Shown: positions 13,202 to 47,670 of the stretch, one piece after another
Layout: each line of letters begins with the position of its first letter
Position numbering within the stretch: the stretch's first letter is position 1
Assembly: GCA_002432655.1 (NCBI GenBank)
Contig: DJFZ01000018.1
Span: 40,391 to 104,390 of the forward strand
DNA from: Thiotrichaceae bacterium UBA5859
GTDB taxonomy: Bacteria; Pseudomonadota; Gammaproteobacteria; UBA5859
Reading direction: 5' to 3'
Length of the DNA stretch: 64,000 nt
Program-made: the position numbers and the translations under genes
Notes under the pieces: model-generated
The model's input: the letters and a program-made list of their open reading frames with translations, nothing else
Told to the model about the DNA's origin: nothing
Database searches by the model: none

Positions 13202-13212
13202 ACCAAGAACCT

Positions 13213-15817: not shown

Positions 15818-15824
15818 ATTCGAT

Positions 15825-26692: not shown

Positions 26693-26710
26693 TTCGTTGA
26701 AAGTAAACTC

Positions 26711-28681: not shown

Positions 28682-28711
28682 CAGATTTCTAAATCTTATG
28701 AAGTTGTTGTT

Positions 28712-30645: not shown

Positions 30646-31331
30646 CCTTGGCATTAATCATGTTAAGTGCCTTCTGGGTGGGTTTAGCTGGCGCGGGACA
30701 TTGTCTCAGTATGTGTTCTGGTTTTTCCGGAATGGCTGCAACAGATCTCTCCACGGGTATACCCAGATGGCAAAATTTTGCCCTCGTGCAATTGGGGCGG
30801 ATCTCTAGTTATCTGCTGGTGGGAGCGGTATTGGCGGCCGGGCTGCAATGGTTGGAGCTGTCCACTTCAGACTCTTTATTAGTAGTGGGGCACTATTTCG
30901 CCCTCTTCATGTTGCTTGGGTTGGCCCTCTATCTGTTCGGATTCCCCCAGTTACTGCTTCCCTTTGAAAAGCTGGGAGGTTGGATTTGGCGGCCTTGCCA
31001 ACGGCTGATAAACGGACTCTTTCCTATCCAGCGGCCTAGTCAGGCCTTTGCTTTTGGGTTGCTCTGGGGCTGGTTACCCTGCGGTATGGTATACGCGGTG
31101 GCGGCCCTTGCTCTGAGCACTGGCGTACCTTATCAAGGCGCTTTAGTGATGGTGGCGTTTGGCATTGGAACCTTACCGGCAATCTATTCGAGTCAGGCAA
31201 TACTGGGCTATCTCACCCAGCAGGTTCGGCAATCGATGGTACGCAAAATTGGTGGCTGCGCTGTTTTGCTTGTTGCAATCCTGAATTGGTATATACATTC
31301 TCTTTCGCAAAATACGGCTCATTTTCACTAA
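30642..31331 (+). CDS. polytopic membrane protein (TauE/SafE- or HupE-like) coupled to ccoH
   Basis: About 6 TM helices. A GHCLSMC motif lies in the first helix. It overlaps ccoH by 4 nt. Confidence 0.45.
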   Translation: MTLALIMLSAFWVGLAGAGHCLSMCSGFSGMAATDLSTGIPRWQNFALVQLGRISSYLLVGAVLAAGLQWLELSTSDSLLVVGHYFALFMLLGLALYLFGFPQLLLPFEKLGGWIWRPCQRLINGLFPIQRPSQAFAFGLLWGWLPCGMVYAVAALALSTGVPYQGALVMVAFGIGTLPAIYSSQAILGYLTQQVRQSMVRKIGGCAVLLVAILNWYIHSLSQNTAHFH

Positions 31332-31541: not shown

Positions 31542-32381
31542 ATGGCAAGCGTAGCCCATAGCGATGACCGCCTAGTCCCGCAACCAGCTAACCCTAATAT
31601 GATCAGCCGGTTATTATTTCCCGTGGATGAGCGGGGCGCGCCAAAATTACCCTGGTTAGCCGCAGTGATTGGTATCGTGGCGATAGGAGCGTTTGCTACC
31701 GCCTATCGTCTCTACACTCAAAAGTATGCTTTTATCTATGGTTTGGACTATTTTGATGCCGAGTTTGGGACTTACTGGATGAGCCTGTTTTGGACTCAAA
31801 TTACACTCATTACGATGGGTTTAATAATAGGGGTACCTTGGGTTTGGTTCAGCCGCCCTAAAGATCCTCATGCGATGACCCCGCAGCGTGAGTTAGGCGT
31901 TTATTATCTCATTTTCACCTTTATGGCGGTGGGCTCTCTAGCCTTAATGGTGATGCTGGGTGTATTTGTAGAAGCTGACGCTGCTTGGCACCAAGTGACT
32001 ATCCGTGACACAGATTTTACACCGACACACATCGGACTTTTTTATCTAGTGATACCTGCAGGGGCGGTGGGCGCGATCATCGGTGCAATCTGGTTGCACA
32101 CCCGTATGCCGGATTTTGTCGGTAGAGCGTCCATTCCATTTTTATTGGTGGTCGCCGCGCCTGTGATGATTATGCCCAATTTGGGATTGAACGAATGGGG
32201 TCATACCTTCTTTTATGCCGAGGAGCTTTTCGCGGCACCCATCCATTGGGGATTTGTGGTTCTCGGATGGGGATTTTTTGCGCTAGGTGGATTCTTCTTA
32301 CAATGCATCAGCAGAGTACGGGTGTTAACCACTGCTGTTTATGAGAATCCAAAAATGAATGTAGAGAACCAACCGTCATAG
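31542..32381 (+). CDS. pmoC: copper membrane monooxygenase subunit C homolog (PmoC/AmoC family), apparently orphan
   Basis: It aligns over its full length with Methylococcus PmoC (TYWM, [50 protein letters not shown]). The Asp/His/His putative metal ligands are conserved. No A or B subunit gene is adjacent. Confidence 0.8.
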   Translation: [279 protein letters not shown]

Positions 32382-32489: not shown

Positions 32490-33710
32490 TTATCCCACTA
32501 GATTATTCATCTCAAAAATTGGCAACAAGATTGCCACCACTATCAACAGCACCATACCCCCCATTAAAAGAATCATGATTGGCTCTAAGGTAGTGGAAAC
32601 TGCGTTTGATAGAGTTTTTACCTCTCTATCTTGGCTGGTGGCAGCTCGCTCCAACATTTGATCCAGTTGGCCGCTGTTCTCTCCACTGGCGACCAATTTT
32701 AAAATCATTTTGGGGAAATATCCGTCTGACTCTAAAGCGCGATGTAAGTTGCTGCCTTCACTAACGCGCCTAGTGGCTTTGATGACCGATTCACGCATTG
32801 GTAAATTGGTCATCACTTGTGCGGCCACTGGCATGGCTTCCAACGCGGGTACACCGCTGGAGGTTAAGATACTCATGGTTCGCGAGAAATCTGCCGTATT
32901 GCTGCCTTTAATTAACTTTCCTATGAGTGGTAGTTTTAAAACCAGTTGGTCTCGGCGGCGTAATGCGCTTATAGAGCGTTTCATTAATTCCCGGTAAAGG
33001 AGATATGTGACACCAGTGACGATAAGTACGTAGATCCCCTGAGCACGGATGAAGTCGCTTAATGCAATAATTCCCTGTGTCAATGCCGGTAGGGTTTGTC
33101 CTGTGGTGACGAATACCTCCACTAAATCGGGTACGACAAAGGCTAACAAGCCCGACACAATACCAATGGCCACAAAACTAATAATAGCGGGATAGATAAG
33201 GGCACCGATTAATTCACGGCGGTTTTCTTGGCGAGTTTCGGAATAATCTGCTAATCGTTCCAATACCGTATCCAGATTGCCCGAAGTCTCGCCTGCTTTT
33301 ACGGTGGCACAATAAATTTCTGAAAACGCTTTGGGAAAGTCACTGAGCCCGGAAGCCAGGGGGTGGCCTTCCAACACCCGGGTGCGAACGGACAGTAGCA
33401 ATCGTTGCAATTTAGGCTTCTCAGTTTGTTCGGCTACAGTGTGGATCGCTTCTTCTACCGGTAAACCGGCTTTTACTAAGGTGGCCAATTGTCGAGTGAT
33501 CAATGCTTGATCGGCAATGGAGATCCTAAGGTTGGCCCCCGGGGTGTGTCGACGGCCGCGCTCTTTTCGTTGATGGATTTCCACCACGGTGAGTGGGGTC
33601 AAAGCTTGTTGGCGTAAACGTGAGCGGATCTGTTTCGCAGTATCCCCTTCTAATATTCCGCTTTGCTGCTTGCCAGCGTTGTCCAACGCTTTGTATTCGA
33701 ATGCAGCCAC
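32490..33710 (-). CDS. gspF: type II secretion system inner-membrane platform protein GspF
   Basis: It is a 406-aa protein with two GspF/PilC repeats and 3 TM helices. It follows gspE. Confidence 0.9.
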   Translation of the reverse strand: MAAFEYKALDNAGKQQSGILEGDTAKQIRSRLRQQALTPLTVVEIHQRKERGRRHTPGANLRISIADQALITRQLATLVKAGLPVEEAIHTVAEQTEKPKLQRLLLSVRTRVLEGHPLASGLSDFPKAFSEIYCATVKAGETSGNLDTVLERLADYSETRQENRRELIGALIYPAIISFVAIGIVSGLLAFVVPDLVEVFVTTGQTLPALTQGIIALSDFIRAQGIYVLIVTGVTYLLYRELMKRSISALRRRDQLVLKLPLIGKLIKGSNTADFSRTMSILTSSGVPALEAMPVAAQVMTNLPMRESVIKATRRVSEGSNLHRALESDGYFPKMILKLVASGENSGQLDQMLERAATSQDREVKTLSNAVSTTLEPIMILLMGGMVLLIVVAILLPIFEMNNLVG

Positions 33711-33711
33711 A

Positions 33712-35250
33712 TTAATCCTCGTAGGTGACGCGCAACACTTCTTCTACAGAGGTGACACCTGTTAGCGCTTTTTCGATACCATCCTGACGAATGCTGGGGG
33801 AATGGCGCCGCGCATACTGTTCAATTTGCTGTTCGCTGGCGGATTCATGGATCAGTTGTCTTAAGGTGTCATCGATAGCGATGATTTCATATATTCCGGT
33901 GCGTCCTAAATATCCTGTTTGGTTACAGTGATCGCAGCCTATGGTCTTATACAAAGTGGGTGGATTATCTTTTGGCAGATTAAACTCTTCACATTCGGTT
34001 TCGCTGGCAGTATAAGGCTCTTTGCACTTCGGACAGAGCACTCTCACTAGCCTTTGCGCTACGACACCAATCAAACTGGAAGAGAGTAGGAAAGGCTCTA
34101 TGCCCATATCTGCGAGTCTAGTGATGGCACCTACCGCACTATTGGTATGCAAGGTAGATAATACCAAGTGGCCTGTTAAACTAGCCTGAACGGCAATTTG
34201 CGCAGTTTCTAGATCCCGAATTTCACCCACCATCACCACGTCAGGATCCTGCCGCAAAATAGCTCGCAGTCCCCGTGCAAAACTCATGTCTGCTTTGGTA
34301 TTCACCTGCGATTGGCCGATGCCGTCAATGTAATATTCAATGGGATCTTCTACAGTGAGGATGTTACGTTCCTTGTTGTTTAGTTCTCCGAGTGCGGCGT
34401 AAAGGGTGGTGGTCTTTCCCGATCCAGTCGGTCCAGTCACCAAAAAGATGCCGTTGGGTTTGTGAATGGTTTTGCTGACAATCTTTCTGGAGATGCCATT
34501 TAAACCCAGTGCGTCTAAAGTGAGTCGACCCGCTTGTTTGTCTAGCAGACGCATCACCACTCTTTCACCATGACTAGAGGGCAAGGTGGACACCCGAACA
34601 TCCACTGGCCGTCCCGCAACACGGAGTGAAATACGGCCATCTTGTGGTAGGCGTTTTTCCGCAATATCGAGGCGCGCCATCACTTTCACTCTGGAGACAA
34701 TTAGCGGAGTGAGTTTTGCCTTCGCAGAAAAAACCTCTTTTAATACGCCATCGGTGCGAAAGCGCACGACTAATCGAGATTCGAACGGTTCAAAGTGTAC
34801 ATCGGATGCCTGTTGTTTCACCGCTTCTGCTAAGAGCGCGTTGATCAGACGAATGATGGGTGCATCGTCCTGTGTGTCGAGTAGATCTTCCGGCTCCGGT
34901 AGTGACTGGGCGGCCAGATCTAGATCCCAATCCTCATCAATACTGCCCATCTCCTGAATTGACTGGGAGGATTCTGCTTCGTAAGTTTCCTGTAGCAGTG
35001 AATCGAACAGTTCAGTGGTAATTTGCTGATAACGAACCGGTTGATTGATATGACGTCGTACTTCTAACAGAGTCGCCAGAGTAGTATCTGGTAAATGCAT
35101 GACTGTGGGCAAATTACCAGCGGAGAAATTTAATAAAACTCCATGACGTTTGGCAAAACCAAATGGCAAGGGGCGCAACATGATAGTGTCGTTTTGCGGC
35201 TGGGTGGTGTCGGACCAAGATCCGAATTCATTGCTGGGCTCAGATGCCAT
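33712..35250 (-). CDS. gspE: type II secretion system ATPase GspE
   Basis: Walker A GPTGSGKTT, Asp/His boxes and a C-terminal tetracysteine CPKC...CDHC are present. Confidence 0.95.
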   Translation of the reverse strand: MASEPSNEFGSWSDTTQPQNDTIMLRPLPFGFAKRHGVLLNFSAGNLPTVMHLPDTTLATLLEVRRHINQPVRYQQITTELFDSLLQETYEAESSQSIQEMGSIDEDWDLDLAAQSLPEPEDLLDTQDDAPIIRLINALLAEAVKQQASDVHFEPFESRLVVRFRTDGVLKEVFSAKAKLTPLIVSRVKVMARLDIAEKRLPQDGRISLRVAGRPVDVRVSTLPSSHGERVVMRLLDKQAGRLTLDALGLNGISRKIVSKTIHKPNGIFLVTGPTGSGKTTTLYAALGELNNKERNILTVEDPIEYYIDGIGQSQVNTKADMSFARGLRAILRQDPDVVMVGEIRDLETAQIAVQASLTGHLVLSTLHTNSAVGAITRLADMGIEPFLLSSSLIGVVAQRLVRVLCPKCKEPYTASETECEEFNLPKDNPPTLYKTIGCDHCNQTGYLGRTGIYEIIAIDDTLRQLIHESASEQQIEQYARRHSPSIRQDGIEKALTGVTSVEEVLRVTYED

Positions 35251-37343
35251 TAATGAACCACCTTTGATATCTCGTTCACATTAGCTACTGGAGATCTGGC
35301 TGCTGTTGCGCTATTTTTTTGCCGCAATGGATCGGATTGATATAGCTGTGATTGCCCCTCGGGTAACTCTGCATCAGAAGGTTGATGTTCTGGTGTATGA
35401 GGTTTGGGGGGAGAACTCTTTCGATATTTAGTGCGGTAATCTTCGATTTCCGGCAACACGGGCACCTCATTCTGCTCTTGCATAAATACCCCTTTTTGAC
35501 GCTGTAACAGCTGCTGGGTACGGATATCAATGTATTTGCTATTGGCGATAAAAGCAGCAGATTCTTTGCTTGGTACTATCACTGGATGAATAAAGACCAC
35601 TAGATTACGCTTGCTTTTGTTCGCCGATTTAAAAGTGAAGAGTTTGCCTAGGATTGGAATGGCGCTGAGTATGGGTACTCGTTGCACACTTTCAGAGATC
35701 TGATCTTCGATGAGTCCACCGAGCACGATGATTTCACCATCATCTGCTAACACAGAGGTTCTAATATTGCGTTTGTCAAAGGTAAGATCCACACCTTGGG
35801 TGGCCGCAGCCACGCTAGAGACTTCCTGTTCAATTGAGAGTTTTACCATGCCGCCTTCGCTAATTTGCGGAGTCACCTTAAGCGTGATACCCACATCCCT
35901 GCGGTCAATGGTTTGAAATGGGTTTTGTAATTCACCAGCGCGGCTAATGGAGCCCGTAACTGTTGCCACCTCCTGGCCGACTACGATTTCTGCTTCTTCA
36001 TTGTCGAGGGTCATTAAGCTGGGGGTGGAGAGAATGTTGGTATTGGCATTGCCCGCCAAGGCTTGGATCAAGGAGGCAAAGTTGAGCTCACTGCTATCTA
36101 TTACGCCCAAGGCCAAAGATGCGCCTGGGCCTAATCCTGAGGCGGCTGCTGTGGTTTGATCGGCAGCAATATTGCCGACCACATCAATGATGGAGGAGCG
36201 CGAAGAAGTGGGGAAGTTAATCGCGCCTACCAAACCATCACCATCTTCATCACCACCGAATAACCATTGTAATCCCAATTCAGCTTCATTTCGGCCTTGA
36301 ATTTCCGCAATCACTGCCTCCACCAAAACTTGTGAGCGACGAATATCTAGTTTACGAATGATGGACTGTAAAGAGCGCATGAGGGCTGGTGGTGCCGTAA
36401 TCACTAAAGCGTTAGTGGCTTCATCCGCTTGAATATTGAAGGCTTGGTTAGGGCGGGATGCTTTTTTCGCCTGTTGATCTTTTTCAAAATTCTGACCTAC
36501 GCCGGTCAATACTTCCACCAGTTTACTGGCCTCAGCATGGCGCAGGTAGATGACCTGAGTATCACCTTCCCGTCCTACGGGGGTGTCTAAATGGGTGACC
36601 AGTGCGCGAATACGAAGGCGTTCGATTTTATCCCCTCCCAAGAGCACACTGTTGGTTCGTTCATCTGCTACCACAGTGATATTTTCCGATGTGGCTTTGC
36701 CTTTTTGTTTGGCAGTATTTAATGCGGAGAGAGTTTTAACCACTTCAGCTGCTGAGGCGTGTTGCAAGGTGACAATTTCGATGTCCGCATCGCCCGCCTT
36801 ATCAATGCGGCGAATGATGTCGGCAATGCGGGCCACATTATCTGCTCGATCAGAGACAATGAGAGTATTGGTTGGCGGATATGCAGCCATGTGACCCTGC
36901 TGCGGAATCAAAGGACGCAGAATCGGTACCAGCTGGGCAGCAGTCACATGCTGGATAGGGATGACCTGAGTGATGGATTCTCCCCCTAAGGACGGATCAT
37001 GTAACGATGTCACTGGTGTGGCGCTCTGCTTTGCGGAGACTTCAGGCACAATCTTGTAGGTGTTGTCCTGTACCGGAATAACTGAGAAACCTTGCACGCC
37101 CAACATCGAAAGGAATACTTGATAGACCGCATCCGCATCCATGGCTTCTGAGGAAACAATCGTCACTTTTCCCTTTACTCGGGGATCGACGATGAAGTTC
37201 TTGCCGGTCATTTCAGAGACGGTAGAGATAACCGCCAATATATCGGCGTCTTTTAAGTTTAGTGTTAAGCTTCCCTGCGCCCAGACACTGCCCCCCAGCA
37301 GCAACAGCATCGTGAATAGTAGTCGAATACCATATTTCTTCAT
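35250..37343 (-). CDS. gspD: type II secretion system secretin GspD
   Basis: A signal peptide, N-domains and a secretin C-domain (VPILSAIPILGKLF) are present, with an S-domain tail. Confidence 0.9.
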   Translation of the reverse strand: MKKYGIRLLFTMLLLLGGSVWAQGSLTLNLKDADILAVISTVSEMTGKNFIVDPRVKGKVTIVSSEAMDADAVYQVFLSMLGVQGFSVIPVQDNTYKIVPEVSAKQSATPVTSLHDPSLGGESITQVIPIQHVTAAQLVPILRPLIPQQGHMAAYPPTNTLIVSDRADNVARIADIIRRIDKAGDADIEIVTLQHASAAEVVKTLSALNTAKQKGKATSENITVVADERTNSVLLGGDKIERLRIRALVTHLDTPVGREGDTQVIYLRHAEASKLVEVLTGVGQNFEKDQQAKKASRPNQAFNIQADEATNALVITAPPALMRSLQSIIRKLDIRRSQVLVEAVIAEIQGRNEAELGLQWLFGGDEDGDGLVGAINFPTSSRSSIIDVVGNIAADQTTAAASGLGPGASLALGVIDSSELNFASLIQALAGNANTNILSTPSLMTLDNEEAEIVVGQEVATVTGSISRAGELQNPFQTIDRRDVGITLKVTPQISEGGMVKLSIEQEVSSVAAATQGVDLTFDKRNIRTSVLADDGEIIVLGGLIEDQISESVQRVPILSAIPILGKLFTFKSANKSKRNLVVFIHPVIVPSKESAAFIANSKYIDIRTQQLLQRQKGVFMQEQNEVPVLPEIEDYRTKYRKSSPPKPHTPEHQPSDAELPEGQSQLYQSDPLRQKNSATAARSPVANVNEISKVVH

Positions 37344-38236
37344 CTAATTTGGCCTTGTATTGTGATTGTTTCGCCGTTTCTTTGTACTTCAAGAGAAACC
37401 CGGTCGGCGTCCGCAAGGCTTTGCAAGCTCTTCAGCATTGTGGCGGCATCTCCAAGAGGGTGTCCATTGATAGATAATACAATATCACCCGAGCGTAACC
37501 CCAAAGCATCCATCAATTTGGGATCGGGGCCAGGAGCAATTCTGTAGCCCGTAATTTTCTGGTTTTTAAAAAAGGGCGCAACTTTAAGCCACTTTTGTAT
37601 ATCTTGTGGATTGCTTAATAGTTGGTCACGAATGGCACTTAAAGATTGATCGGACTGAGTACTATTATTGCGAGGATTGTTTCTAACGTTTCTTGCTCGC
37701 GGGCCCATGCCCGTCTCAATCCTTTCTTTCGGCAAAAACAGGGTTTCGTAACGGACGCCCCGTTTTAAGATGACTCTGTCAGCCTCTATAGAGTAGATTT
37801 CAGCGTTATCAGCGATAGTGTCTCCCACGTGGTAGACTTTTTCCGGTTTATTGCCCTCGGCTATTATCGCCAAGGGATCCTGGTCGCCAACCGTATGAAA
37901 GAGTCCGCGCAGGGTCAGTTGTAAGCTAGTTTTAGGTGCCTGTGTTGGGAGCTGAATAGGTGCGCTAGTTTTGGCTGGTTCACCAAATAGGTGTAAGGCA
38001 CCCAATTTTACCTGCTTTACCTCTGCTCGTTTGCTGCTGCTTTGGACGGGCGGCATGGTTTCTTCAGCCACGATGGGAACCGGGAACATTTGCCAGGTTA
38101 GATGAGCGGTTTGCAGTGCTAAAAGAGCCAGTGCGAAGTAAAGACCGAGACGTGCGAGACGCTCACTATCGCTTTTTAAGTGATTGATAATTTTAAAAAA
38201 TACAGGATACTTTGATAGTTCAGTTAAAGCGGTCAC
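37340..38236 (-). CDS. gspC: type II secretion system protein GspC (with PDZ domain)
   Basis: An N-terminal TM helix, an HR domain and a C-terminal PDZ (GLRSGDIVLSINGHPL) are present. It is the first gene of the gspCDEF operon. Confidence 0.7.
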   Translation of the reverse strand: MTALTELSKYPVFFKIINHLKSDSERLARLGLYFALALLALQTAHLTWQMFPVPIVAEETMPPVQSSSKRAEVKQVKLGALHLFGEPAKTSAPIQLPTQAPKTSLQLTLRGLFHTVGDQDPLAIIAEGNKPEKVYHVGDTIADNAEIYSIEADRVILKRGVRYETLFLPKERIETGMGPRARNVRNNPRNNSTQSDQSLSAIRDQLLSNPQDIQKWLKVAPFFKNQKITGYRIAPGPDPKLMDALGLRSGDIVLSINGHPLGDAATMLKSLQSLADADRVSLEVQRNGETITIQGQIR

Positions 38237-38393
38237 AAGTGTTATTTAAGAGTCCAAATTTGAGTTGATTGACGATGATCCTGCTCCCAGAGGGACTCTA
38301 TGATAAGGTTTGTCCCGACAGGATGCGAATAGAACGCCAGATTTCCATGTTAACCTACGTCTCTTTCATCTTGATTAAGCAAATTACTGGCCA

Positions 38394-38789
38394 GTGAACG
38401 GAGTGCAAAGTAATAAAAATTGTGAAAAAGTCCGTTTGGACAAATGGTTATGGGCCGCCCGTTGTTATAAAACGCGAGCACTAGCTGCCCAAGCTATTCG
38501 TGGTGGCTTGGTGCAATATAACGGTCAACGGGTGAAACCGAGCCAAAACGTCTCCATCGGTAGTGAAGTTTGGTTGCGAATTGGGCAGACGCAAAGAACT
38601 TTACGGGTGTGTGCCTTAGCAGAGCAACGCAAATCGGCAAAAATCGCGGCATTACTTTACCAAGAAACCCCGGAAAGTGTTTTGAGTCGACAAGCCACTA
38701 CCATGATGTTCCACGCAAGCAAGATCATCCCTGGCCCGAAACCGAACAAAAGAGAGCGTCGGCAACGCCAAAAACTTGTAGGCCGCTGA
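38394..38789 (+). CDS. hslR: ribosome-associated heat shock protein Hsp15 (S4 RNA-binding domain)
   Basis: VRLDKWLWAAR.YKTRALA...G.V.YNGQR.KPS is collinear with E. coli HslR. Confidence 0.85.
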   Translation: MNGVQSNKNCEKVRLDKWLWAARCYKTRALAAQAIRGGLVQYNGQRVKPSQNVSIGSEVWLRIGQTQRTLRVCALAEQRKSAKIAALLYQETPESVLSRQATTMMFHASKIIPGPKPNKRERRQRQKLVGR

Positions 38790-38917
38790 TCCCACCTGTA
38801 TCAATCCATACCAATGGTTTTATATGTTTCTCATGCTTGTTGAGAAACGGCCGATTTTTAATGGAAGCACAAGCGCAATTCCCGGAATCAGTCTCGATCT
38901 GCATAGAAGGAGAGTAG

Positions 38918-39289
38918 GTGAGTACACCGCTGTTAGTTGTTGATGACTCAAAGATGTCTAGGCGCCTCATCAAGCGTTCTATTCCGCCGGGATGGGATGT
39001 TGAAGTGAGCGAGGCACAGAATGGTGTAGAGGCCCTCGAGGCGATTCGCGCAGGCAAAGCGCATGTGATGTTTCTGGATCTAACCATGCCGGTAATGGAT
39101 GGGTTTCAAGTTCTAAAAGAGGTGCGTGAAGAAAATCTGGATACGATGGTGATTGTCATATCTGCGGATATTCAACCCAAGGCTGAAATACGAGTGAAAG
39201 AGCTTGGCGCGATGGCTTTTATTAAAAAGCCTATTGATCAAGAGATTCTAACTAAAGTACTCAAAGAGTATGGTATCTATGATGGTTGA
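38918..39289 (+). CDS. CheY-like single-domain response regulator
   Basis: Receiver residues are conserved (DD at the N-terminus, FLDLTMP phospho-Asp, VISA Thr/Ser, FIKKP Lys). There is no output domain. Confidence 0.85.
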   Translation: MSTPLLVVDDSKMSRRLIKRSIPPGWDVEVSEAQNGVEALEAIRAGKAHVMFLDLTMPVMDGFQVLKEVREENLDTMVIVISADIQPKAEIRVKELGAMAFIKKPIDQEILTKVLKEYGIYDG

Positions 39290-39902
39290 GGCCAAACCAT
39301 ATACGGAAGATGAGCAGGATATGCTGCAAGAGGTGGTCAATATCGCCATTGGGCAAGCCGCTTCTTCACTGGCAAAGATCTTCGACACCTTTGTGGTTTT
39401 ATCCGTACCACAAATTGCATTGGTGGGCTCCAGTACTTTGGCCACCTCAGTCACCTCTCTCATTGGCGAGCATGAGGAAGGCATCATTGGCGTACGCCAA
39501 GCATTCTATAATCAGCTTTGCGGCGAGGCATTTGCGATCTATGGCCGCAAGGGTTGTACGGGGCTAGCTGAACAGTTGGGATATGAAAGTGAACAGCTAG
39601 ACTTGGTAGATGAAGAAGTGTTATTGGATATTACTAATGTCTTAGTAGGGGCCTGTTTGTGTGGGGTGGCGGAGCAGTTAGATAGGGAATTAAGCTTCAC
39701 TGCGCCTGCACTCTGTTCTGGGCAAGATTCCACTGAAGAGTTGTTAGAATTAAGAGATCATTCCTGGACTGAATCGTTGTTGGTACAAACGAGATTAGGG
39801 TTCGAGGGACAAGAGTTTCAGTGTCATTTAGTCATTTTAATGGCTGAAGACACGATGGAGGAATTACGTCTCGCATTAGTAGACGTCATGGAATTGGATT
39901 AG
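39279..39902 (+). CDS. CheC/CheX-like protein (putative CheY-P phosphatase)
   Basis: CheC-type motifs are present (E..NIAIGQAAS.LA and a second ..TNVLVGA). It overlaps the receiver gene stop. An AAGAG lies 10 nt upstream of the ATG at 39279. The ORF list starts at 39270. Confidence 0.55.
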   Translation: MMVEAKPYTEDEQDMLQEVVNIAIGQAASSLAKIFDTFVVLSVPQIALVGSSTLATSVTSLIGEHEEGIIGVRQAFYNQLCGEAFAIYGRKGCTGLAEQLGYESEQLDLVDEEVLLDITNVLVGACLCGVAEQLDRELSFTAPALCSGQDSTEELLELRDHSWTESLLVQTRLGFEGQEFQCHLVILMAEDTMEELRLALVDVMELD

Positions 39903-39903
39903 C

Positions 39904-40866
39904 ATGCATGATCAACTAGATCCAAATCTATTCAGATTTGTTGTGGATCAGGTAGACCTTGGAATTGTTGTCTTCGACAACGATCTCAACGTATTGTATT
40001 GGAATCACTTTATGGAAACGCATAGTGGTTTCAGTAGTGAACGGGTGATGCAAAATAATCTCTTCGAGCTATTCCCGGAACTGCCCCATAAATGGTTAGA
40101 ACGCAAGGTAAGGGGTGTGTTCCTGTTAAGAAACTACGCGTTTACTACCTGGGAACATCGCCCCTATCTGTTTCGGTTTAAACACCATCGCCCCATTTCT
40201 GGTGGCGCTGAATATATGCATCAAAACTGTACTTTCATTCCAGTTAAAAATGAAGCCGGTGATGTGGAAGCGGTCTGTTTGACTATTGCTGATGTGACGG
40301 ATGCCAGTATTTATCAACGCGAACTGAAACAGGCGAATTTTAAGTTGGAGGAGATGAGTAACCGTGATCCGCTAACCGGTGCGTATAACAGACGCTACAT
40401 GGATCAGATCCTGGGCCGAGAATTTCAACGTGTGAAGAGATATGGCGGTGAGCTGGCACTTTTGATGTTCGATTTGGACCATTTTAAGCAAATAAATGAT
40501 ACTTATGGTCATCAAGCAGGGGATGAGGTGTTAATTGAGTGTACTCGTCGCATATCCGCCAGTTTGCGTAAGACCGACTGCATGAGCCGTTACGGCGGAG
40601 AAGAATTTGCTGTCATCTTAACTAACGCGGATCGACGAGTGGCTACTTCTGTGGCAGAGCGGATCCGCCAAAGTATTGCATCGAAACCAATTCAATATAA
40701 TGGTCGCCAAATCTGTATCAGTGCCAGTATTGGTTTGGCCAGTTATACTCCAGAGTGTTTGACCCACCACACACTAATATATCAAGCTGACAAAGCGCTC
40801 TATTTCTCTAAGGAGAATGGTCGTAATTTGTTGACCTGTTACAATGCCGATTGTGAACATGCCTGA
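39904..40866 (+). CDS. PAS-domain diguanylate cyclase (GGDEF)
   Basis: An N-terminal PAS fold is present. GGEEF active site RYGGEEFAV is present. An RxxD I-site-like motif lies upstream. Confidence 0.9.
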   Translation: MHDQLDPNLFRFVVDQVDLGIVVFDNDLNVLYWNHFMETHSGFSSERVMQNNLFELFPELPHKWLERKVRGVFLLRNYAFTTWEHRPYLFRFKHHRPISGGAEYMHQNCTFIPVKNEAGDVEAVCLTIADVTDASIYQRELKQANFKLEEMSNRDPLTGAYNRRYMDQILGREFQRVKRYGGELALLMFDLDHFKQINDTYGHQAGDEVLIECTRRISASLRKTDCMSRYGGEEFAVILTNADRRVATSVAERIRQSIASKPIQYNGRQICISASIGLASYTPECLTHHTLIYQADKALYFSKENGRNLLTCYNADCEHA

Positions 40867-40959
40867 CCCATTCTAGTTGGGTTTGCGCAAGATAACTAAA
40901 TTCAGCACAATACCTCTTGTCATGACAGTGTTATCGCTCTAAAAGAGCTGCCCCGATCC

Positions 40960-41829
40960 ATGAAAAAATGTCGTTCTGAAAGACTCACTATTTGCGGCCT
41001 GGACTATCACCTTCGGTTATGGGGTGAGAGAGATCGACCACTGATGGTGATGTTGCATGGTTGGATGGATGTGTCAGCCTCGTTCCAATTTTTAGTCGAC
41101 GCATTGGCAGATCGATGGCAGGTTGTTGCGCCGGATTGGCGTGGATGCGGGCTCACTGAATGGGCGCAAGGGAGCTATTATTTTCCAGATTATCTAGCGG
41201 ATTTAGATCAGATCTTACTTCACTATAGTGCGGGCCACCCCGTGCACCTAGTCGGTCACAGCATGGGAGGCAATGTGGCCGGCTTGTACGCCGGTATTAG
41301 GCCCGAGCGAGTGGCGTCACTGATCAGTCTAGAGGGATTTGGCATGCCAGATTCCGCTGCGGATCTGGCGCCGGCACGATACTTGAAATGGTTAGATCAG
41401 CGGCGAGAGTCGGCTGTGTTCAAACTATACGAAGACTTTTCTGGTGTAGAGGCCAGGTTAAAAAAAACCAATAGCAATTTAACTGATGAAAAAGCAGCCT
41501 TTCTAGCGCAGCATTGGGCACGTCAGCGAGAGGATGGCAAGGTGGAATTATTGGGGGATCCGCGCCATAAATGGACTAATCCGGTACTTTATCGCGCGTC
41601 AGAAGCGTTGGCTTGTTGGCGCCAGATCCGCGCGCCAGTATGTTGGATCAGTGCCAAAGATTCAATGCTCGGCCGTTGGTTTGAGTCGGATAAAGCGGAG
41701 AAGGCCCGTCGTATGGCTGCGTTTCGTTCTATACGATATGACACGGTGACAGAATCGGGTCATATGTTGCATCATGACCAACCAGCAAAAGTCGCGCAAT
41801 TGATTGAAACATTTTTGAATGAAATATAG
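40960..41829 (+). CDS. alpha/beta hydrolase fold protein
   Basis: HGW oxyanion region, GHSMGG nucleophile elbow and a C-terminal His are present. Confidence 0.75.
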   Translation: MKKCRSERLTICGLDYHLRLWGERDRPLMVMLHGWMDVSASFQFLVDALADRWQVVAPDWRGCGLTEWAQGSYYFPDYLADLDQILLHYSAGHPVHLVGHSMGGNVAGLYAGIRPERVASLISLEGFGMPDSAADLAPARYLKWLDQRRESAVFKLYEDFSGVEARLKKTNSNLTDEKAAFLAQHWARQREDGKVELLGDPRHKWTNPVLYRASEALACWRQIRAPVCWISAKDSMLGRWFESDKAEKARRMAAFRSIRYDTVTESGHMLHHDQPAKVAQLIETFLNEI

Positions 41830-41879
41830 ACGAGATAAAGTGCTTGTGCCGGCGAAGCCAGAAATGAAGTGAGGAAAAA

Positions 41880-42320
41880 ATGAGTAATACAGTATCCCGG
41901 AGCCAAAAGGGTTTAACTCTGATCGAAATCTTAGTGGTCATGTTTATTTTAGGACTGCTCATTACCCTGGTAGCCCCACGGGTGATGAACCGTACTGATG
42001 ATGCACGGCTGACGAAAGCGAAACATGATATTCGCTCTATCGAGAGTGCCTTGAATCTATATAAACTAGATAATTTTGTTTATCCGAGTAACGACCAAGG
42101 ACTGCTCGCTTTAGTGGAGCAGCCGAGTGGTACACCGGAAGCGCGCAATTGGAAACAGGACGGATATATCGAACGCTTGCCAACGGATCCCTGGGGATAT
42201 GAATACCAGTATTTAAATCCCGGTAATATGGGAACGATTGATATATTTTCTTTTGGCGCTGACGGCAAACCAGGTGGCGAGGATATCAATGCAGATATTG
42301 GCAATTGGAATTTAGAGTAG
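41880..42320 (+). CDS. gspG: type II secretion system major pseudopilin GspG
   Basis: Prepilin leader and N-terminal helix KGLTLIEILVVMFILG are present. It is 146 aa. Confidence 0.9.
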   Translation: MSNTVSRSQKGLTLIEILVVMFILGLLITLVAPRVMNRTDDARLTKAKHDIRSIESALNLYKLDNFVYPSNDQGLLALVEQPSGTPEARNWKQDGYIERLPTDPWGYEYQYLNPGNMGTIDIFSFGADGKPGGEDINADIGNWNLE

Positions 42321-42856
42321 TCTCTCAGTGTTGTCAGGATCGCGCATTGAAGCAACCACTTAAAGGCATCGCCTGTACGCGAAGGGTTGCCGCATTTACT
42401 TTACTTGAGTTACTAGTGGTGATGGCAATCCTGGTCATCGTCACCGGACTTGCTGTGAGTCGAGTCAATTTTCGCACCCAACAAACACCTGTGATGAAAG
42501 AAGCAGAGCGATTAAATGTGCTCTTCGAACTGGTACAGGAAGAGAGTATTTTGTGGGATCGATTGTTGGTTTTTCAGGTAGATAAGCAAGGCTATCAATT
42601 TTTTGAGGAGCGCTCTGGGCAATTGGTGCCGGCTTCCAGCAAACTATTTCGTGCTAAAGCTTGGTCAGAAGATGTGCGTTTAACCTGGATCTCAGGAGGT
42701 GAGCAAGGTCTCGACGACAAAAAGTTTCTTGTATTTTTTTATCCTACTGGGCAAACCACTCCGTATGCATTTAGTCTGGCTGGCGAAATAGGACTGAATC
42801 AATCCTTTCTATTGAGTAGCGAAGGTTCTGGAGAGTTTAAGATTGAGGCTGAATAG
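42305..42856 (+). CDS. gspH: type II secretion system minor pseudopilin GspH
   Basis: Pseudopilin N-terminal helix AFTLLELLVVMAIL is present. The start is uncertain because of a long leader. Confidence 0.65.
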   Translation: MEFRVVSQCCQDRALKQPLKGIACTRRVAAFTLLELLVVMAILVIVTGLAVSRVNFRTQQTPVMKEAERLNVLFELVQEESILWDRLLVFQVDKQGYQFFEERSGQLVPASSKLFRAKAWSEDVRLTWISGGEQGLDDKKFLVFFYPTGQTTPYAFSLAGEIGLNQSFLLSSEGSGEFKIEAE

Positions 42857-42858
42857 TC

Positions 42859-43266
42859 TTGCATATGAACAGAGACGAGGAAAATAAGCTGCTTGGCTTA
42901 CCCAAGGGCTTTACCTTAATTGAGGTATTGGTGGCGCTGGCGATTGTTGCAGTTGCACTAGCAGCGGTGCTCAATTCCAGCAGTGCGCATACGCGAAACT
43001 TAACATATCTAAAAGAAAAAACACTGGCGCATTGGGTGGCATCGAATCAATTAATGGAAGCCGAATTGTCAGCTAATGGTTGGCCCGCTGTGGGAGTGAG
43101 TACGGGAAATGAAGAGTTAGCTGGTCATTCCTGGTATTGGCGTAGACAAGTGAGCTTGGCCACCGAAATTAATGGCAAAGAGATGCGACGTGTGGATGTG
43201 GCTGTCTATTTTGATGAGCGTGTGAAGCAAGCCCATGCACAGGTTTCCGGATTTATTATTAGATGA
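42859..43266 (+). CDS. gspI: type II secretion system minor pseudopilin GspI
   Basis: KGFTLIEVLVALAIVAVAL prepilin N-terminus is present. Confidence 0.8.
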   Translation: MHMNRDEENKLLGLPKGFTLIEVLVALAIVAVALAAVLNSSSAHTRNLTYLKEKTLAHWVASNQLMEAELSANGWPAVGVSTGNEELAGHSWYWRRQVSLATEINGKEMRRVDVAVYFDERVKQAHAQVSGFIIR

Positions 43267-43868
43267 AAGATAACGCCGCATTTACCTTGATTGAATTAAT
43301 GGTAGCGATGGCAGTGTTTGCTGTGCTTTCGGTGATTGCTTATGGTGGCTTGAATAACATCATTAAGACTTCTGAGGTAGTGGAAGCACAAGCAGAAAGA
43401 TTAAAAGAGTTACAGATTTTTATGGCTGTGGTGCAAAAGGACATGCAAAATATTGTACCTCGCACAGTACGAGATGAGTTAGGTGATGTGGAAGCTGAAG
43501 TAAAAATGCCCGGCGGCGGGGCAAGAACCATAGATTTTACTCGTGGCGGGCAACGTAATCTACTCAAGCTGCCACGCAGTGACATGCAGCGAGTGGGTTA
43601 TGAGTTAAGAGAAAATCAGCTCCTTCGTGTCAGCTACATGCAATTAGATCGTGCCCCTGGAACTGAACCATTGGAACAGGTTTTGCTGGAAGATGTACAA
43701 GATTGGCAGATCCGCTTGTTAGATGACAAAAATAATTGGCACAGTGTGTGGCCACCGTTGAATCAAACGGGTACGACCACCTCCTTAATGCCTCAGGCGA
43801 TAGAGTTGGAATTGACTCTAAAGGATTGGGGGGATATCCGTCGCCTGATACGAGTGTATGATCCATAA
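43263..43868 (+). CDS. gspJ: type II secretion system minor pseudopilin GspJ
   Basis: AFTLIELMVAMAVFAVL N-terminus is present. It is about 200 aa. Confidence 0.8.
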   Translation: MKDNAAFTLIELMVAMAVFAVLSVIAYGGLNNIIKTSEVVEAQAERLKELQIFMAVVQKDMQNIVPRTVRDELGDVEAEVKMPGGGARTIDFTRGGQRNLLKLPRSDMQRVGYELRENQLLRVSYMQLDRAPGTEPLEQVLLEDVQDWQIRLLDDKNNWHSVWPPLNQTGTTTSLMPQAIELELTLKDWGDIRRLIRVYDP

Positions 43869-44842
43869 TGAATGGCAGCATGTTGAAACCGCAACAGGGC
43901 GTGGCGATTATTACGGCAATGTTAATAGTTGCATTGGTTGCTGTGATTGCTGTCGCACTGTTGTCAAAGGGTAATATACATGTGCACCGCACCGAGAATG
44001 TTTTAGTGCGAGATCAAAGTTCATTCTATTGCATCGGTGCTGAGCGCTTAGCCGCATTGATATTGTTGGCGGATACAGATTTTGATGTGGATGGTGCCAC
44101 GGACTTTTGGGCGCAACCGGCCACACCATTACCTTTTGAAGGAGGCATGATCACGGGTCAGATTTCAGATCGACAAGCTAAATTTAATCTAAATTCCCTG
44201 TTAGATGGGAACGGTCAAGCCCGTGCCCCAGACAGTGAGCAAGTGATATTTTTTAAAAATCTGATATCAAGCTTAGGATTGGATCCGAAAATTTTGGGAT
44301 ATGTCATTGATTGGATAGATACAGATACCACCCCCTATGCGGGTGGGGGTGCAGAGGATGCAACCTATATGTTATCAGAGAATCCTTATCGCACAGCAAA
44401 CCAACCGCTAACAGATATTTCGGAATTGAGGTTGATTAAGGGATTTGAAGCAGTTCAAGATCCTGATCCCTATGAGATAATACGCCCCTTTGTCACTGCT
44501 TTGCCGGAATTAACCACTAAGATTAATCTAAACACTGCACCAAAGGAGATTTTAAAGGCTCTAAATCCTGCAATCACCGACAACATGGTGACAACATTTA
44601 TGCAGGATCGCACAGATGCACCTATTACAAAGGTAGGAGATTTTGCAGGGCTTTTACCGCCGGGAACAGTGTCATCGAATAGTACTTTAATTGGTGTGAA
44701 ATCCGACTATTATCAATTAGAAACGCAAATAGATTTCGGTGAACGACAGTTACTATATACCAGTTTCTTAAAGCGAGAACCCCCGAATAGAGTCACTACG
44801 TTGATGCGTAAACCAGGAATCGAGTATGACGAAACTTCTTGA
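43868..44842 (+). CDS. gspK: type II secretion system minor pseudopilin GspK
   Basis: The GspK-type N-terminus (QQGVAIITAMLIVALV, lacking Glu5) is present. It is 324 aa. Confidence 0.8.
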   Translation: MNGSMLKPQQGVAIITAMLIVALVAVIAVALLSKGNIHVHRTENVLVRDQSSFYCIGAERLAALILLADTDFDVDGATDFWAQPATPLPFEGGMITGQISDRQAKFNLNSLLDGNGQARAPDSEQVIFFKNLISSLGLDPKILGYVIDWIDTDTTPYAGGGAEDATYMLSENPYRTANQPLTDISELRLIKGFEAVQDPDPYEIIRPFVTALPELTTKINLNTAPKEILKALNPAITDNMVTTFMQDRTDAPITKVGDFAGLLPPGTVSSNSTLIGVKSDYYQLETQIDFGERQLLYTSFLKREPPNRVTTLMRKPGIEYDETS

Positions 44843-45992
44843 TTGGAGATGGCAAGAAGATAGCATTTCTTGGCCACTACATGGCGTGGTGTCTGATCAA
44901 CTAGACTCAGATCCCACCATGACTTTGCTGGTGCCGACACAACAGGTTTTGTTGACCGAAGCGACTTTACCTACTCGTAAAATGAATAAAGTGCAGCATG
45001 CCTTGCCCTACGCATTAGAAGATGACTTAACAGAGGATGTAGAGCAGATCCATTTTGCCATGGGGGATTGGAAAAACGATAGCAACCAACTGTCGGTTGC
45101 GGTGGTGGATAAATCCCTCATGGATACTTGGTTGCTTCGCATCAAGGAAGTGGGCTTAAATCCCAAACAACTACAGCCGGATGTATTTGCATTGCCTTAT
45201 GTGAGCAATCACTGGTCAGTATGGATAGAAGAAAAACGGGCGTTGGTACGTACTGGCGAGCAATCAGGATTTGCGACGGAGCCGGAGAATTTAGCTTTTT
45301 TAATTGATCACGCCATTAAACAGAGCGCAGATATACCGGAGCACATTGATGTGTACACATCAGAAAGTGGACTCGAGTTGATACTGCCAGAGTTTAGTGG
45401 CGAGATAGAGCACCATCTTTTATCTCAAACAGAACTATCAGAACTAGCACAGCACTTTCATGTGTTGCCCGGCATTAATCTATTGCAAAGTCATTACAGT
45501 CAAAAAGAGCAGTTAAATAAAGCTCTGCGACCCTGGATCCCTGCAGCTATGGTGTTAGCCATTTCGCTAGTCCTGCAGATGTCTCTATTGATATCCGACG
45601 CCTTCCAGGTAAGGGTGCAAGTTTCCCAGTTGGAGGATGAGTTGTTAAGAGTCTATTTAACGGCCTTTCCTGATGATAAAAACGTACGCGATCCTATCGG
45701 TAAAATGCAAAGCCAACTGGCTGCTTTGCAAGGAGAGACTACCGGTAGTGGTTTCATTCCTCTGATGTCAACAGTTGGCGAGACCTTAGCGAAGACACAA
45801 AATATGCGTTTAATGCAGATTAGCTATCGTACCGGAGTATTGGAGCTGGCATTGGAGATAGACTCTGTGTCTGCCTTAGATCAACTTAAGGAACGTCTAT
45901 TGGCAACCAGGGTGGACGTTGAGATCGCATCAGCGGATAAACGAGACGAATTAGTCGAAGCGCGCTTACGGATCCGGGAACAGTCGTCGTGA
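44826..45992 (+). CDS. gspL: type II secretion system protein GspL
   Basis: Size, position, a central TM helix, and a cytoplasmic actin-like N-domain followed by a periplasmic domain all fit. Confidence 0.7.
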   Translation: MTKLLDWRWQEDSISWPLHGVVSDQLDSDPTMTLLVPTQQVLLTEATLPTRKMNKVQHALPYALEDDLTEDVEQIHFAMGDWKNDSNQLSVAVVDKSLMDTWLLRIKEVGLNPKQLQPDVFALPYVSNHWSVWIEEKRALVRTGEQSGFATEPENLAFLIDHAIKQSADIPEHIDVYTSESGLELILPEFSGEIEHHLLSQTELSELAQHFHVLPGINLLQSHYSQKEQLNKALRPWIPAAMVLAISLVLQMSLLISDAFQVRVQVSQLEDELLRVYLTAFPDDKNVRDPIGKMQSQLAALQGETTGSGFIPLMSTVGETLAKTQNMRLMQISYRTGVLELALEIDSVSALDQLKERLLATRVDVEIASADKRDELVEARLRIREQSS

Positions 45993-46483
45993 AAGCATGG
46001 TTTAGTCAATTGAATGAGCGTGAACAGCAGCTGGTTGTTGTGGGCGGAATATTAGGGGTATGTGTCATTGTATTTGTTCTCTATAGTGACTACGTTTCTC
46101 CCTTTTTTAAGAATTCTCGAACTGGGAGCCAACAACTGCAGCAAATGCAGGCCGATCTCGACTGGTTAAGGCAGGCGGCCATGCAAGCGAAACAGTTAAA
46201 ACCTCAATCCTCGTTGAAAAGCAATCGTGGCAATCAGTCTCTCTTTGCTTTAGTGGATAGTAGTAGCAAGCAAGCACAATTGTCACAGGCGGTGAAACGG
46301 GTAGAGCCAGAAGGGGAGAAGCGGGTACGTATTTGGTTAGAGAATGCTAAGTTTGATGATGCCATTAATTGGTTATCTTTATTGCATTCACGTTATCAAA
46401 TCAATGTGGAGAAGATCACCATCGATGCTGTAGCGCCCGGTCAGGTTAATTTAAGTGCCCTGTTGATTGAAACAAATTCATGA
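45989..46483 (+). CDS. gspM: type II secretion system protein GspM
   Basis: It is a 164-aa bitopic protein after gspL with a 4-nt overlap. Confidence 0.65.
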   Translation: MKAWFSQLNEREQQLVVVGGILGVCVIVFVLYSDYVSPFFKNSRTGSQQLQQMQADLDWLRQAAMQAKQLKPQSSLKSNRGNQSLFALVDSSSKQAQLSQAVKRVEPEGEKRVRIWLENAKFDDAINWLSLLHSRYQINVEKITIDAVAPGQVNLSALLIETNS

Positions 46484-47250
46484 AAACTTATTTGCGTCCC
46501 ACTCTATTTTTTATTGCAGTTTTGTTGATCTGTTTGATAATCACTTTTCCGGCGAGCCAAGCGTTGAGAATAGCACCTAAATTGCCTAATTCGATCACGC
46601 TGGGCGAAGCCTCAGGTACCCTTTGGGATGGCGAGTTGTCGGCTGTTCGCTTGAATGGCATACATCTGTCGCCTTTGCGGTGGTCTGTTCATGTGGTGCC
46701 CTTGGCTTTTGGTCGAGCACAACTGTCTTTGGAAGTACCTTCACAGTCTACCGGTATCAAGGGTGTTTTTTCTCATAATCTACTTGGACATACTGTGGTG
46801 AAGGATCTTTCGTTACGGTTTCCAGTATCAGAATTGACGCAACCCTGGATCCCCAGACCCTTTGGTGCATCGGGGGAGTTAACTGGAAGCGTACCCTATC
46901 TGTTAATAGATGATCAGGGCATTCAGGAGATCGATGCCACCTTAATGTGGGCGCAGGCTACATTTATGACGCCTGAACCGCTGTCATTAGGAGGCATGCG
47001 TGTAGAGTTGAATAGTCCTAAGGCACATCATGTGGTGGGAAAGATCACTAGCGATAAACAACAGTTGGATGTACAGCTCACATTAGAAATAACCCCTGAG
47101 ACATATACTCTATCGGGATTTATTAAACCGGTGGCAAATTCGGAGATCTCGACGCAGACAATAAATAGAATATTAGGTAGGCCAAATCGTAATGGTGAAT
47201 ATCGACTACAATATAAGGGTTCTATTGAGCAGTTAAAGGCATTTTTGTAA
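46480..47250 (+). CDS. gspN: type II secretion system protein GspN
   Basis: It is a 256-aa protein with an N-terminal TM helix in the last position of the gsp operon. Confidence 0.6.
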   Translation: MKTYLRPTLFFIAVLLICLIITFPASQALRIAPKLPNSITLGEASGTLWDGELSAVRLNGIHLSPLRWSVHVVPLAFGRAQLSLEVPSQSTGIKGVFSHNLLGHTVVKDLSLRFPVSELTQPWIPRPFGASGELTGSVPYLLIDDQGIQEIDATLMWAQATFMTPEPLSLGGMRVELNSPKAHHVVGKITSDKQQLDVQLTLEITPETYTLSGFIKPVANSEISTQTINRILGRPNRNGEYRLQYKGSIEQLKAFL

Positions 47251-47256: not shown

Positions 47257-47670
47257 TTGAAAAACATGGATAGTTTGACCTTAAAACCAGCAGCGGCAGG
47301 GGAAATCACCCCTGAGAATAAATGTTCGTTTTGTACCGGTTCGATATGTTGCACCTATATTACGGAGGAATTAGCCACACCAAAAGCTAAGTCTGATTTT
47401 GATCATCTGCTGTGGCAAGTATCCCACGATCATATTTCTATATACAAAGATGAAGATGGTTGGTTTTTATTGGTAGAAGGAAAATGCACACATTTACAGG
47501 CGGATGGTGCCTGTGGCATTTATGACACTCGTCCCCAAGTGTGTCGTGACTATGACAATGATTGGTGCGAGTATGATGAACCTGCGGAAAAGGGATTCGA
47601 TCTCTACTTTAGAAACTATGATGAATTACTGGCTTACTGTAAAAGAAGATTCAAAAGATGGGGGAGATAA
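47257..47670 (+). CDS. YkgJ-family cysteine-cluster protein (CxxCxxxxCC zinc/iron-chelating domain)
   Basis: CSFCTGSICC, a central C.H and CGIY...C motifs are present. It is 137 aa. Confidence 0.6.
   Translation: MKNMDSLTLKPAAAGEITPENKCSFCTGSICCTYITEELATPKAKSDFDHLLWQVSHDHISIYKDEDGWFLLVEGKCTHLQADGACGIYDTRPQVCRDYDNDWCEYDEPAEKGFDLYFRNYDELLAYCKRRFKRWGR

Follow-up and report, generated by a model that had tools for sequence, protein, structure and literature searches.

A receiver, CheC-like and PAS-GGDEF cassette conserved across bacterial lineages and found inside a split type II secretion locus

What is a CheC-like protein doing between the two halves of a type II secretion system (T2SS) locus? 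The question is raised by a stretch of 64,000 nucleotides from Thiotrichaceae bacterium UBA5859 (contig DJFZ01000018.1, positions 40,391 to 104,390), hereafter the window, in which the gene of this protein is preceded by that of a CheY-like receiver (REC), followed by that of a PAS-GGDEF protein, and enclosed by two divergent blocks of gsp genes. What is understood of CheC-type phosphatases comes almost entirely from chemotaxis. The initial annotation listed five co-oriented genes in the interval, with an hslR-like gene on one side and a hydrolase gene on the other, and suggested that the receiver and CheC-type pair, coupled to the cyclase, controls local cyclic di-GMP (c-di-GMP), possibly with read-through into the pseudopilin operon. 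We hold with high confidence that the REC/CheC-like/PAS-GGDEF triad is an autonomous conserved cassette. Its genes and their sites are given below (coordinates are those of the window; aa, amino acids).

38918-39289, plus strand: stand-alone CheY-like receiver (REC), 123 aa, cassette gene 1 (Pfam Response_reg, E 3e-25)
39270-39902, plus strand: CheC-like protein, 210 aa from the first ATG, cassette gene 2 (Pfam CheX and CheC)
39318-39410, plus strand: active-site motif 1 of the CheC-like protein, D17-x3-E21-x2-N24-x22-P47 (DMLQEVVN...P), exactly the canonical D/S-x3-E-x2-N-x22-P
39615-39707, plus strand: active-site motif 2, a variant, E116-x3-D120-x2-N123-x22-P146 (EVLLDITN...P), aligned to the second CheC site
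39904-40866, plus strand: PAS-GGDEF protein, 320 aa, cassette gene 3 (GGDEF, E 3e-48; PAS_4, E 5e-10)
about 39931-40308, plus strand: PAS domain of the cyclase (the PAS_4 match, E 5e-10)
40567-40578, plus strand: I-site RKTD of the cyclase (residues 222-225), an RxxD read from the sequence
40594-40608, plus strand: active site GGEEF of the cyclase (residues 231-235), read from the sequence

The domain assignments of these and the other genes of the locus are strong matches and not chance. REC starts with a GTG preceded by a GGAG-type ribosome-binding site. Its open reading frame (ORF) overlaps that of the CheC-like protein by 20 nt if the latter is counted from its first ATG, and by 8-11 nt from the ATGs at 39279/39282, which agree with the N-termini of homologues and therefore likely include the true start. 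A single nucleotide separates the CheC-like stop codon from the ATG of the cyclase. The cassette genes are probably translationally coupled.

Whether these three genes belong together was judged from their distribution. Word-indexed and exhaustive searches at E <=1e-30 gave a CheC-like family of 217 representatives (50%-identity clusters), and a metagenome scan confirmed at least 431 relatives, counted among the best 600 candidate stretches. In total, 90 cassette loci were compiled, made up of individual homologue contexts, one genome match (L001) and the 80 metagenome loci listed by the scan, several of the 90 being duplicate contigs. Linkage was counted by tblastn with the window proteins in those loci that have enough flanking DNA, here called testable. 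The gene just upstream of the CheC-like gene encodes REC in all 82 testable loci, and the one just downstream encodes a full-length PAS-GGDEF protein in 53 of 64; the junctions overlap or fall within a few tens of nucleotides in nearly all loci. The surroundings, on the other hand, vary by lineage and include luciferase-like oxidoreductases, an M23 peptidase, citrate synthase, glutamate dehydrogenase and UvrD, among others. The linkage bears out the proposal that a receiver, a CheC-type protein and a PAS-GGDEF cyclase form a genuine module, and in more than 80 loci the CheC-like subfamily is firmly tied to a receiver of its own and to either a c-di-GMP enzyme or a PAS kinase. A cluster look-up of ten family representatives returned only names derived from metagenome-assembled genomes (MAGs) and no model organism. 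In the literature searched, no functional study of the cassette was found, in keeping with the remark of the initial annotation that this is not a described module. Its parts, i.e., receivers, CheC/CheX/FliY proteins and PAS-GGDEF proteins, are known; the combination of the three genes is apparently uncharacterised, widespread and unstudied.

In many marine Gammaproteobacteria the CheC-like protein is fused to the receiver. About a dozen top matches of the exhaustive search are such fusions (~340 aa), and the set collected here consists of P0134, P0282, P0255, and P0186 with some 120 relatives and the loci L007-L010. The REC half of P0134 is plainly orthologous to the window REC. A search with P0134 showed the fusion to be common in Marinobacter, Halomonadaceae, Marinimicrobium, Hahella, Halovibrio, and Oleiphilaceae, and in all three genomes inspected (Marinobacter, Halomonadaceae, and Marinimicrobium) it is followed by a PAS_4-GGDEF gene of ~320 aa. 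That the two genes are fused in some lineages and separate in others is good evidence for mutual action of REC and the CheC-like protein. One metagenomic sequence of a different kind, P0165 (325 aa), joins the first 1.5 CheC-like repeats to a GGDEF domain and has no PAS domain. As it is a single sequence in which half of the CheC-like domain is gone, it was set aside as a probable deletion product or assembly artefact.

Which member of the CheC class does the cassette encode? The hidden Markov model support on which the initial annotation had made its reading depend is present for both Pfam families, with 33.2 bits for CheX (cutoff 27) and 25.2 bits for CheC (cutoff 22). The NCBIfam model CheC_Thtogales matches over its full length (E 1e-9), at 38.5 bits against an equivalog cutoff of 250. 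A family profile built from an alignment of 21 homologues (A1) matches Thermotoga maritima FliY (4hyn, E 4e-14) and CheC (1xkr, E 5e-13) end to end in the PDB. The same alignment was used for an AlphaFold2 model (pLDDT 83.9, pTM 0.82), for which Foldseek places the CheC structures 2f9z_A and 1xkr first (E ~1e-13, TM-score 0.70) and FliY 4hyn and the haloarchaeal CheC-like protein 3qta next, while CheX (query-normalised TM-score ~0.5) and FliM align worse. The two repeats align to both CheC sites, and the order of secondary structure elements is duplicated in the model. By models, motif and fold, the protein belongs to the CheC/CheX/FliY phosphatase superfamily, as a CheC-type protein with two repeats.

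The neighbouring classes were considered and rejected. CheX is dimeric, has a single site and measures about 150 aa, and FliY carries a C-terminal FliN domain. A CheX identity is contradicted by the length of 210 aa with two motifs and by the poorer structural alignment, an identity as FliY by a CheC-like domain that spans the whole ORF with no FliN match. The distinction between CheC, CheX, and FliY that the initial annotation had left to be checked thus falls to CheC. An orthologue of chemotaxis CheC it is not, given a score far below the equivalog cutoff and no chemotaxis gene context. As had been noted for CheA and methyl-accepting chemotaxis proteins (MCP), neither of these nor a histidine kinase is encoded by the about 45 larger ORFs of the window that were scanned (small ORFs were left out); cheA, cheW, cheD, and mcp genes are likewise missing from these ORFs and from the loci with listed genes, where a cheR in L068 is the only exception.

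The catalytic residues are well kept at the first site. E21, N24, and P47 of motif 1 are invariant in 83 of 83 distinct cassette homologues. In motif 2 the same homologues conserve E116 (82/83), N123 (79/83) and P146 (83/83), and position 120 is Asp in 74 and Glu in nine, such that Asp takes the place of the catalytic Glu. Among the REC-CheC-like fusions, motif 1 is canonical in 118 of 120, whereas the Asn of motif 2 is mostly Ser or Gly. As the first motif stays canonical where the second has mostly lost its Asn, site 1 is the predicted universal catalytic site of the CheC-like family.

The putative substrate is well preserved too. REC has the phospho-acceptor set D9/D10 (38942-38947), D54 (39077-39079), S82, and K104 (39227-39229); among 81 homologues, D9, D10, D54 and K104 are invariant and S/T82 is conserved wherever the aligned sequence covers the position. 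Its closest natural sequence relatives in the PDB are CheY proteins (E ~3e-12). On residue criteria, namely an acidic pocket, a phospho-acceptor Asp and the Ser/Thr and Lys of the switch, REC counts as a CheY-like single-domain response regulator, and it looks functional and phosphorylatable.

The third gene product matches the diguanylate cyclase model TIGR00254 with E 2e-55. GGEEF and RxxD were found in 49 of 49 cassette cyclases, the RxxD at the canonical spacing of five residues upstream. By residue content, the cyclase looks catalytically competent and product-inhibitable. The PAS domain of the cyclase is of a distinctive subfamily marked by a highly conserved segment W-E-x-R-P-Y-L-F-x-F-x-x-x-R-P-x-T-G-G...M-x-Q-x-C. 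It matches the PDB entry 3mxq (‘Sensor protein’, 152 aa) with E 1e-23 and ~36% identity over a region that takes in the segment S-W-E-x-x-P-x-L-x-x-F-K-x-x-R-P-V-S-G, and through this match a structure exists for the cassette PAS subfamily. We take 3mxq to be a sensory-box kinase of Vibrio cholerae.

This PAS domain outlasts the output domain. In six of 64 testable metagenome loci, and on a contig of an Azonexus MAG, it is carried by a HisKA-HATPase_c kinase in place of GGDEF (L058, L068, L072, L081, L084, L086, and L093), at 52-56% identity to the cassette PAS. The order in L068 is GAF-kinase, REC, CheC-like, PAS-kinase, REC-HD-GYP, and CheR. Since PAS is retained when GGDEF is exchanged for a kinase, the conserved core comprises REC, the CheC-like protein and the distinctive PAS domain, with an output that is usually predicted to be c-di-GMP synthesis.

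How, then, might the cassette work? What is observed directly is the make-up of the genes, the families to which they belong, their catalytic residues and the close linkage or fusion of the parts in many lineages. Building on the conservation of the cassette, the REC-CheC-like fusion, the retained catalytic residues and the c-di-GMP theme in the kinase variants, we infer phosphatase activity of the CheC-like protein towards the adjacent REC, and an action of phosphorylated REC (REC~P) on the cyclase. The orphan REC would receive its phosphate, at D54, from a histidine kinase encoded elsewhere or from a small phosphodonor. The co-translated CheC-like protein would speed up the hydrolysis of REC~P via E21/N24 of its first helix, possibly also via D120/N123, and by this hydrolysis the phospho-signal would be kept short-lived. 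The ratio of REC to REC~P, together with whatever the PAS domain senses, would set the activity of the GGEEF cyclase, whose output would be c-di-GMP and which would be product-inhibited through the RxxD I-site. We consider the whole chain, i.e., a REC~P reset by its own CheC-type phosphatase with REC state and PAS input jointly gating the cyclase, to be somewhat probable.

Several points weigh against this chain. No kinase for REC is encoded by the window ORFs scanned or in most of the loci. REC could regulate the CheC-like domain instead of being its substrate, and the fused form is indeed catalogued, in the census passages cited, as a response regulator with a CheC output (PMC2222644). The linkage to the cyclase would also be explained by co-transcription alone. 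In five of 64 testable loci (L044, L052, L053, L062, and L063) the third gene is missing or a remnant, while the REC/CheC-like pair persists; L052 keeps only a 115-aa C-terminal remnant of GGDEF (1150-1497). The role of motif 2 is uncertain because Asp replaces the catalytic Glu and the Asn is lost in the fused subfamily. Finally, the literature searched yielded no biochemical or genetic data on any cassette member.

The CheC-like protein could be mainly an adaptor that binds the PAS-cyclase, as CheC does CheD or in the manner of FliM, with bound REC~P switching this contact in a kind of partner switch and phosphatase activity being secondary or absent. The CheC fold is common to the non-enzymatic middle domain of FliM, the second site is non-canonical, and the retention of the same PAS under output swap suggests that PAS is a contact for REC or the CheC-like protein. 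Bacillus subtilis CheC, moreover, is a weak phosphatase that acts mainly through binding of CheD (cf. passages in PMC3513319). What makes an adaptor unlikely is motif 1: its invariance in all unfused homologues and its canonical form in nearly all fusions are hard to explain without catalysis. We know of no FliM-type protein with the D/S-x3-E-x2-N-x22-P motif.

A second alternative takes the position of the cassette at face value and wires it to the T2SS, with local c-di-GMP or transcriptional read-through into gspG-N controlling pseudopilin or T2SS output. The flanking genes are the following.

32490-33710, minus strand: gspF (Pfam T2SSF)
33712-35250, minus strand: gspE (Pfam T2SSE and GSPE_N1E)
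35250-37343, minus strand: gspD (Pfam Secretin, Secretin_N and N0)
37340-38236, minus strand: gspC (Pfam T2SSC and PDZ)
32490-38236, minus strand: the leftward T2SS block gspF, gspE, gspD, gspC as a whole (Pfam)
38394-38789, plus strand: S4-domain Hsp15/HslR-like protein, hslR (Pfam S4, E 7e-14)
40960-41829, plus strand: alpha/beta-fold hydrolase (Pfam Abhydrolase_1, E 2e-31)
41880-42320, plus strand: gspG (Pfam T2SSG)
41880-47250, plus strand: the gspG-N block (Pfam T2SSG, N_methyl at the gspH position, T2SSI, T2SSJ, T2SSK, T2SSL, T2SSM, T2SSN)

The layout is as first described: each T2SS gene of the split locus lies where it had been placed and on the strand given, and hslR, receiver, overlapping CheC-like gene, PAS-GGDEF gene and hydrolase gene all share the orientation of gspG-N. 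The hslR-like ORF matches NCBIfam Hsp15 with E 5e-33 and a score under the equivalog cutoff. The gap between hslR and REC measures 128 nt. In favour of read-through, the distances from cyclase to hydrolase (93 nt) and from hydrolase to gspG (50 nt) are short, the cassette and gspG-N read in the same direction, the scan picked up nothing resembling a terminator from 38.9 to 41.9 kb, and the arrangement, with its divergent split of the T2SS genes, recurs in another genome, L001, a MAG labelled Thiotrichaceae whose CheC-like protein is 90% identical to that of the window. The scan for consensus promoters and terminators remained at background level and argues neither way. For Vibrio, c-di-GMP is reported to control the expression of T2SS genes. 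Split or divergent T2SS loci are found in other bacteria as well, e.g., xcpPQ/xcpR-Z of Pseudomonas aeruginosa and lsp of Legionella.

The comparison across loci speaks against such wiring. Of the 90 cassette loci, just two, L001 and L011, have T2SS genes next to the cassette; the CheC-like protein of L011 is 100% identical to that of the window, and both loci represent the window's own lineage. Only there is the cassette accompanied by hslR and the hydrolase gene, and the module is thereby not a five-gene unit but one of three genes. Proteins homologous to the hydrolase (55-58% identity) are very common in Burkholderiales and elsewhere, where their genes have unrelated neighbours, and none lies downstream of the cassette in other lineages; the hydrolase was therefore rejected as a partner of either T2SS or cassette. 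Judged by gene context, hslR and the hydrolase are bystanders, unrelated passengers outside the cassette. Rfam families, those of c-di-GMP riboswitches among them, have no match in the window at E up to 1, and no clear regulatory element emerged when the intergenic regions were aligned. The N-terminal domain of GspE is of the classical N1E type and not of the MshEN type; ATPases of the GspE/XcpR/HxcR type from V. cholerae and P. aeruginosa, unlike MshE, did not bind c-di-GMP in DRaCALA, an assay of ligand binding by differential radial capillary action (PMC4624772). No weight was put on a weak terminator-like hairpin that follows hslR (38825-38849), as L001 does not conserve it. Nothing but position speaks for the proposed T2SS link, which finds no support in the comparison of loci and appears distinctly improbable to us. 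As the adjacency is confined to one lineage, the placement of the cassette inside the split T2SS locus looks like an accident of that lineage and not a functional link, and it may serve as a caution that an eye-catching position between T2SS halves is not evidence of function.

In one further locus, L056, weak GspG- and GspD-like matches belong to a type IV pilus-like cluster on the opposite strand and not to a T2SS. This cluster (11373-16573, minus strand, ~2 kb downstream of the cassette) comprises a TPR/STN secretin, PilN/PilO-like proteins and two N-methyl pseudopilins. No association is claimed from this one instance.

A chemotaxis pair, in which REC would serve as an additional CheY or as a sink for phosphate, the CheC-like protein would act on the CheY that binds the motor and the cyclase would be a mere neighbour, would fit the CheY proteins as closest natural sequence relatives of REC in the PDB, the label ‘chemotaxis protein CheC’ that several databases give to homologues and the cheR 1.5 kb downstream in L068, but is most improbable given an obligate linkage to an own REC and a PAS enzyme, the fusion with REC in some lineages, the NCBIfam CheC score far under its equivalog cutoff and a lack of che genes among the window ORFs scanned and the other loci with listed neighbours.

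The proposed chain of REC, CheC-type phosphatase and PAS-gated cyclase can be taken one step further. The cassette might represent an uncharacterised class of c-di-GMP controller whose PAS domain is a docking site for the REC~P/CheC-like pair and not a ligand sensor, such that a fast-resetting phospho-pulse of the chemotaxis kind would give rise to bursts of kinase activity or of c-di-GMP synthesis, and in the window lineage the insertion at the T2SS junction may also have brought gspG-N under the transcriptional influence of the cassette. We offer this extension as a speculation that is rather doubtful as it stands.

Some features of the window lie outside these questions. A second GGDEF protein of 376 aa, whose N-terminal region has no Pfam match, is encoded ~11 kb from the cassette (52358-53488, minus strand), near a Crp/Fnr-family regulator (54136-54879, plus strand). 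Beyond the gspG-N block, a co-oriented gene for a CxxCxxCC protein (putative Zn/Fe-chelating, YkgJ-like; 47257-47670, plus strand) begins 7 nt past gspN, and this position is also filled in L001. Two terminal oxidase systems are found at 10465-18384 and 22569-31331, an aa3-type set (COX2-cytochrome c fusion, COX1, COX3, CtaA, and CtaB) and a cbb3-type set (CcoN, O, and P with FixG/FixH/DsbD_2 for maturation and a divergent heavy-metal P-type ATPase). A gene of the AmoC/PmoC family (ammonia/methane monooxygenase subunit C; 31542-32381, plus strand; Pfam E 1.6e-59) stands alone between the maturation genes of the cbb3 oxidase and gspF, with no amoA/B or pmoA/B beside it, and L001 has the same ORF. 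It may point to a lineage of methane or ammonia oxidisers, although the label of the nearest genome is that of a Thiotrichaceae MAG.

If the proposed mechanism is true, the cassette would be a small system, accessible to experiment, in which an auxiliary phosphatase shapes second-messenger output, and a function would be found for genes that many environmental genomes list as ‘chemotaxis protein CheC’ or ‘hypothetical’. Together with its variants of fusion and output swap, it constitutes a tractable problem in c-di-GMP and two-component signalling.

How does the cassette compare with known systems? With the CheC, CheX, and FliY proteins of chemotaxis (CheC of T. maritima and B. subtilis, CheX of Borrelia and Vibrio), the CheC-like protein shares the fold and the motif of the first helix, and like chemotaxis CheC it is a two-repeat protein of ~200 aa paired with a single-domain CheY-like receiver. 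Unlike chemotaxis CheC, it has no CheA, MCP or CheD context, carries Asp instead of Glu at the second site, and is encoded by a gene always linked to its own receiver and, in most loci, to a PAS-GGDEF or PAS-kinase gene. The CheX of Vibrio (VC0377) is monocistronic and single-site, measures ~150 aa and acts on CheY-3 (PMC12799141, PMC12887009); being a different protein, it was rejected as a description of the cassette.

Closest in domain content are the REC-CheC hybrid regulators that appear in censuses, for example P. syringae Psyr_0886/PSPTO1039 in the cited part of one such census (PMC2222644). In the available passages of another study, Psyr_0886 was purified as a candidate substrate for a BphP1 phosphotransfer assay, and these passages give neither a result nor a function (PMC5654926). 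The hybrids have the same two domains as the fusions P0134 and P0282, in which REC is orthologous to the window REC and the CheC-like domain belongs to the same family. In the window, by contrast, the two domains are separate overlapping genes, and Psyr_0886 is a candidate member of the cassette subfamily. The kinase variant of L068 resembles the V. cholerae operon VC1080-VC1087, with the response regulators VC1081/VC1082, the PAS kinases VC1084/VC1085, the REC-EAL protein VC1086 and the REC-HD-GYP protein VC1087 (PMC4441509, PMC2709254). This is a lead only, in which VC1083 would be the candidate CheC-like protein and 3mxq might correspond to VC1084 or VC1085.

In its logic, the cassette would finally join the group of SiaABCD, HptB-HsbR-HsbA-HsbD, WspR, and PleD, where a phospho-switch with a dedicated phosphatase sets the activity of a cyclase equipped with an I-site. 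Against the SiaD and PleD models the GGDEF domain reaches good scores, though under their equivalog cutoffs. The switch of the cassette would be the phosphorylated Asp of a stand-alone receiver and not, as in SiaABCD and Hsb, a phosphorylated STAS Ser, and its phosphatase is CheC-type and not PP2C. In contrast to WspR and PleD, REC is not fused to GGDEF.

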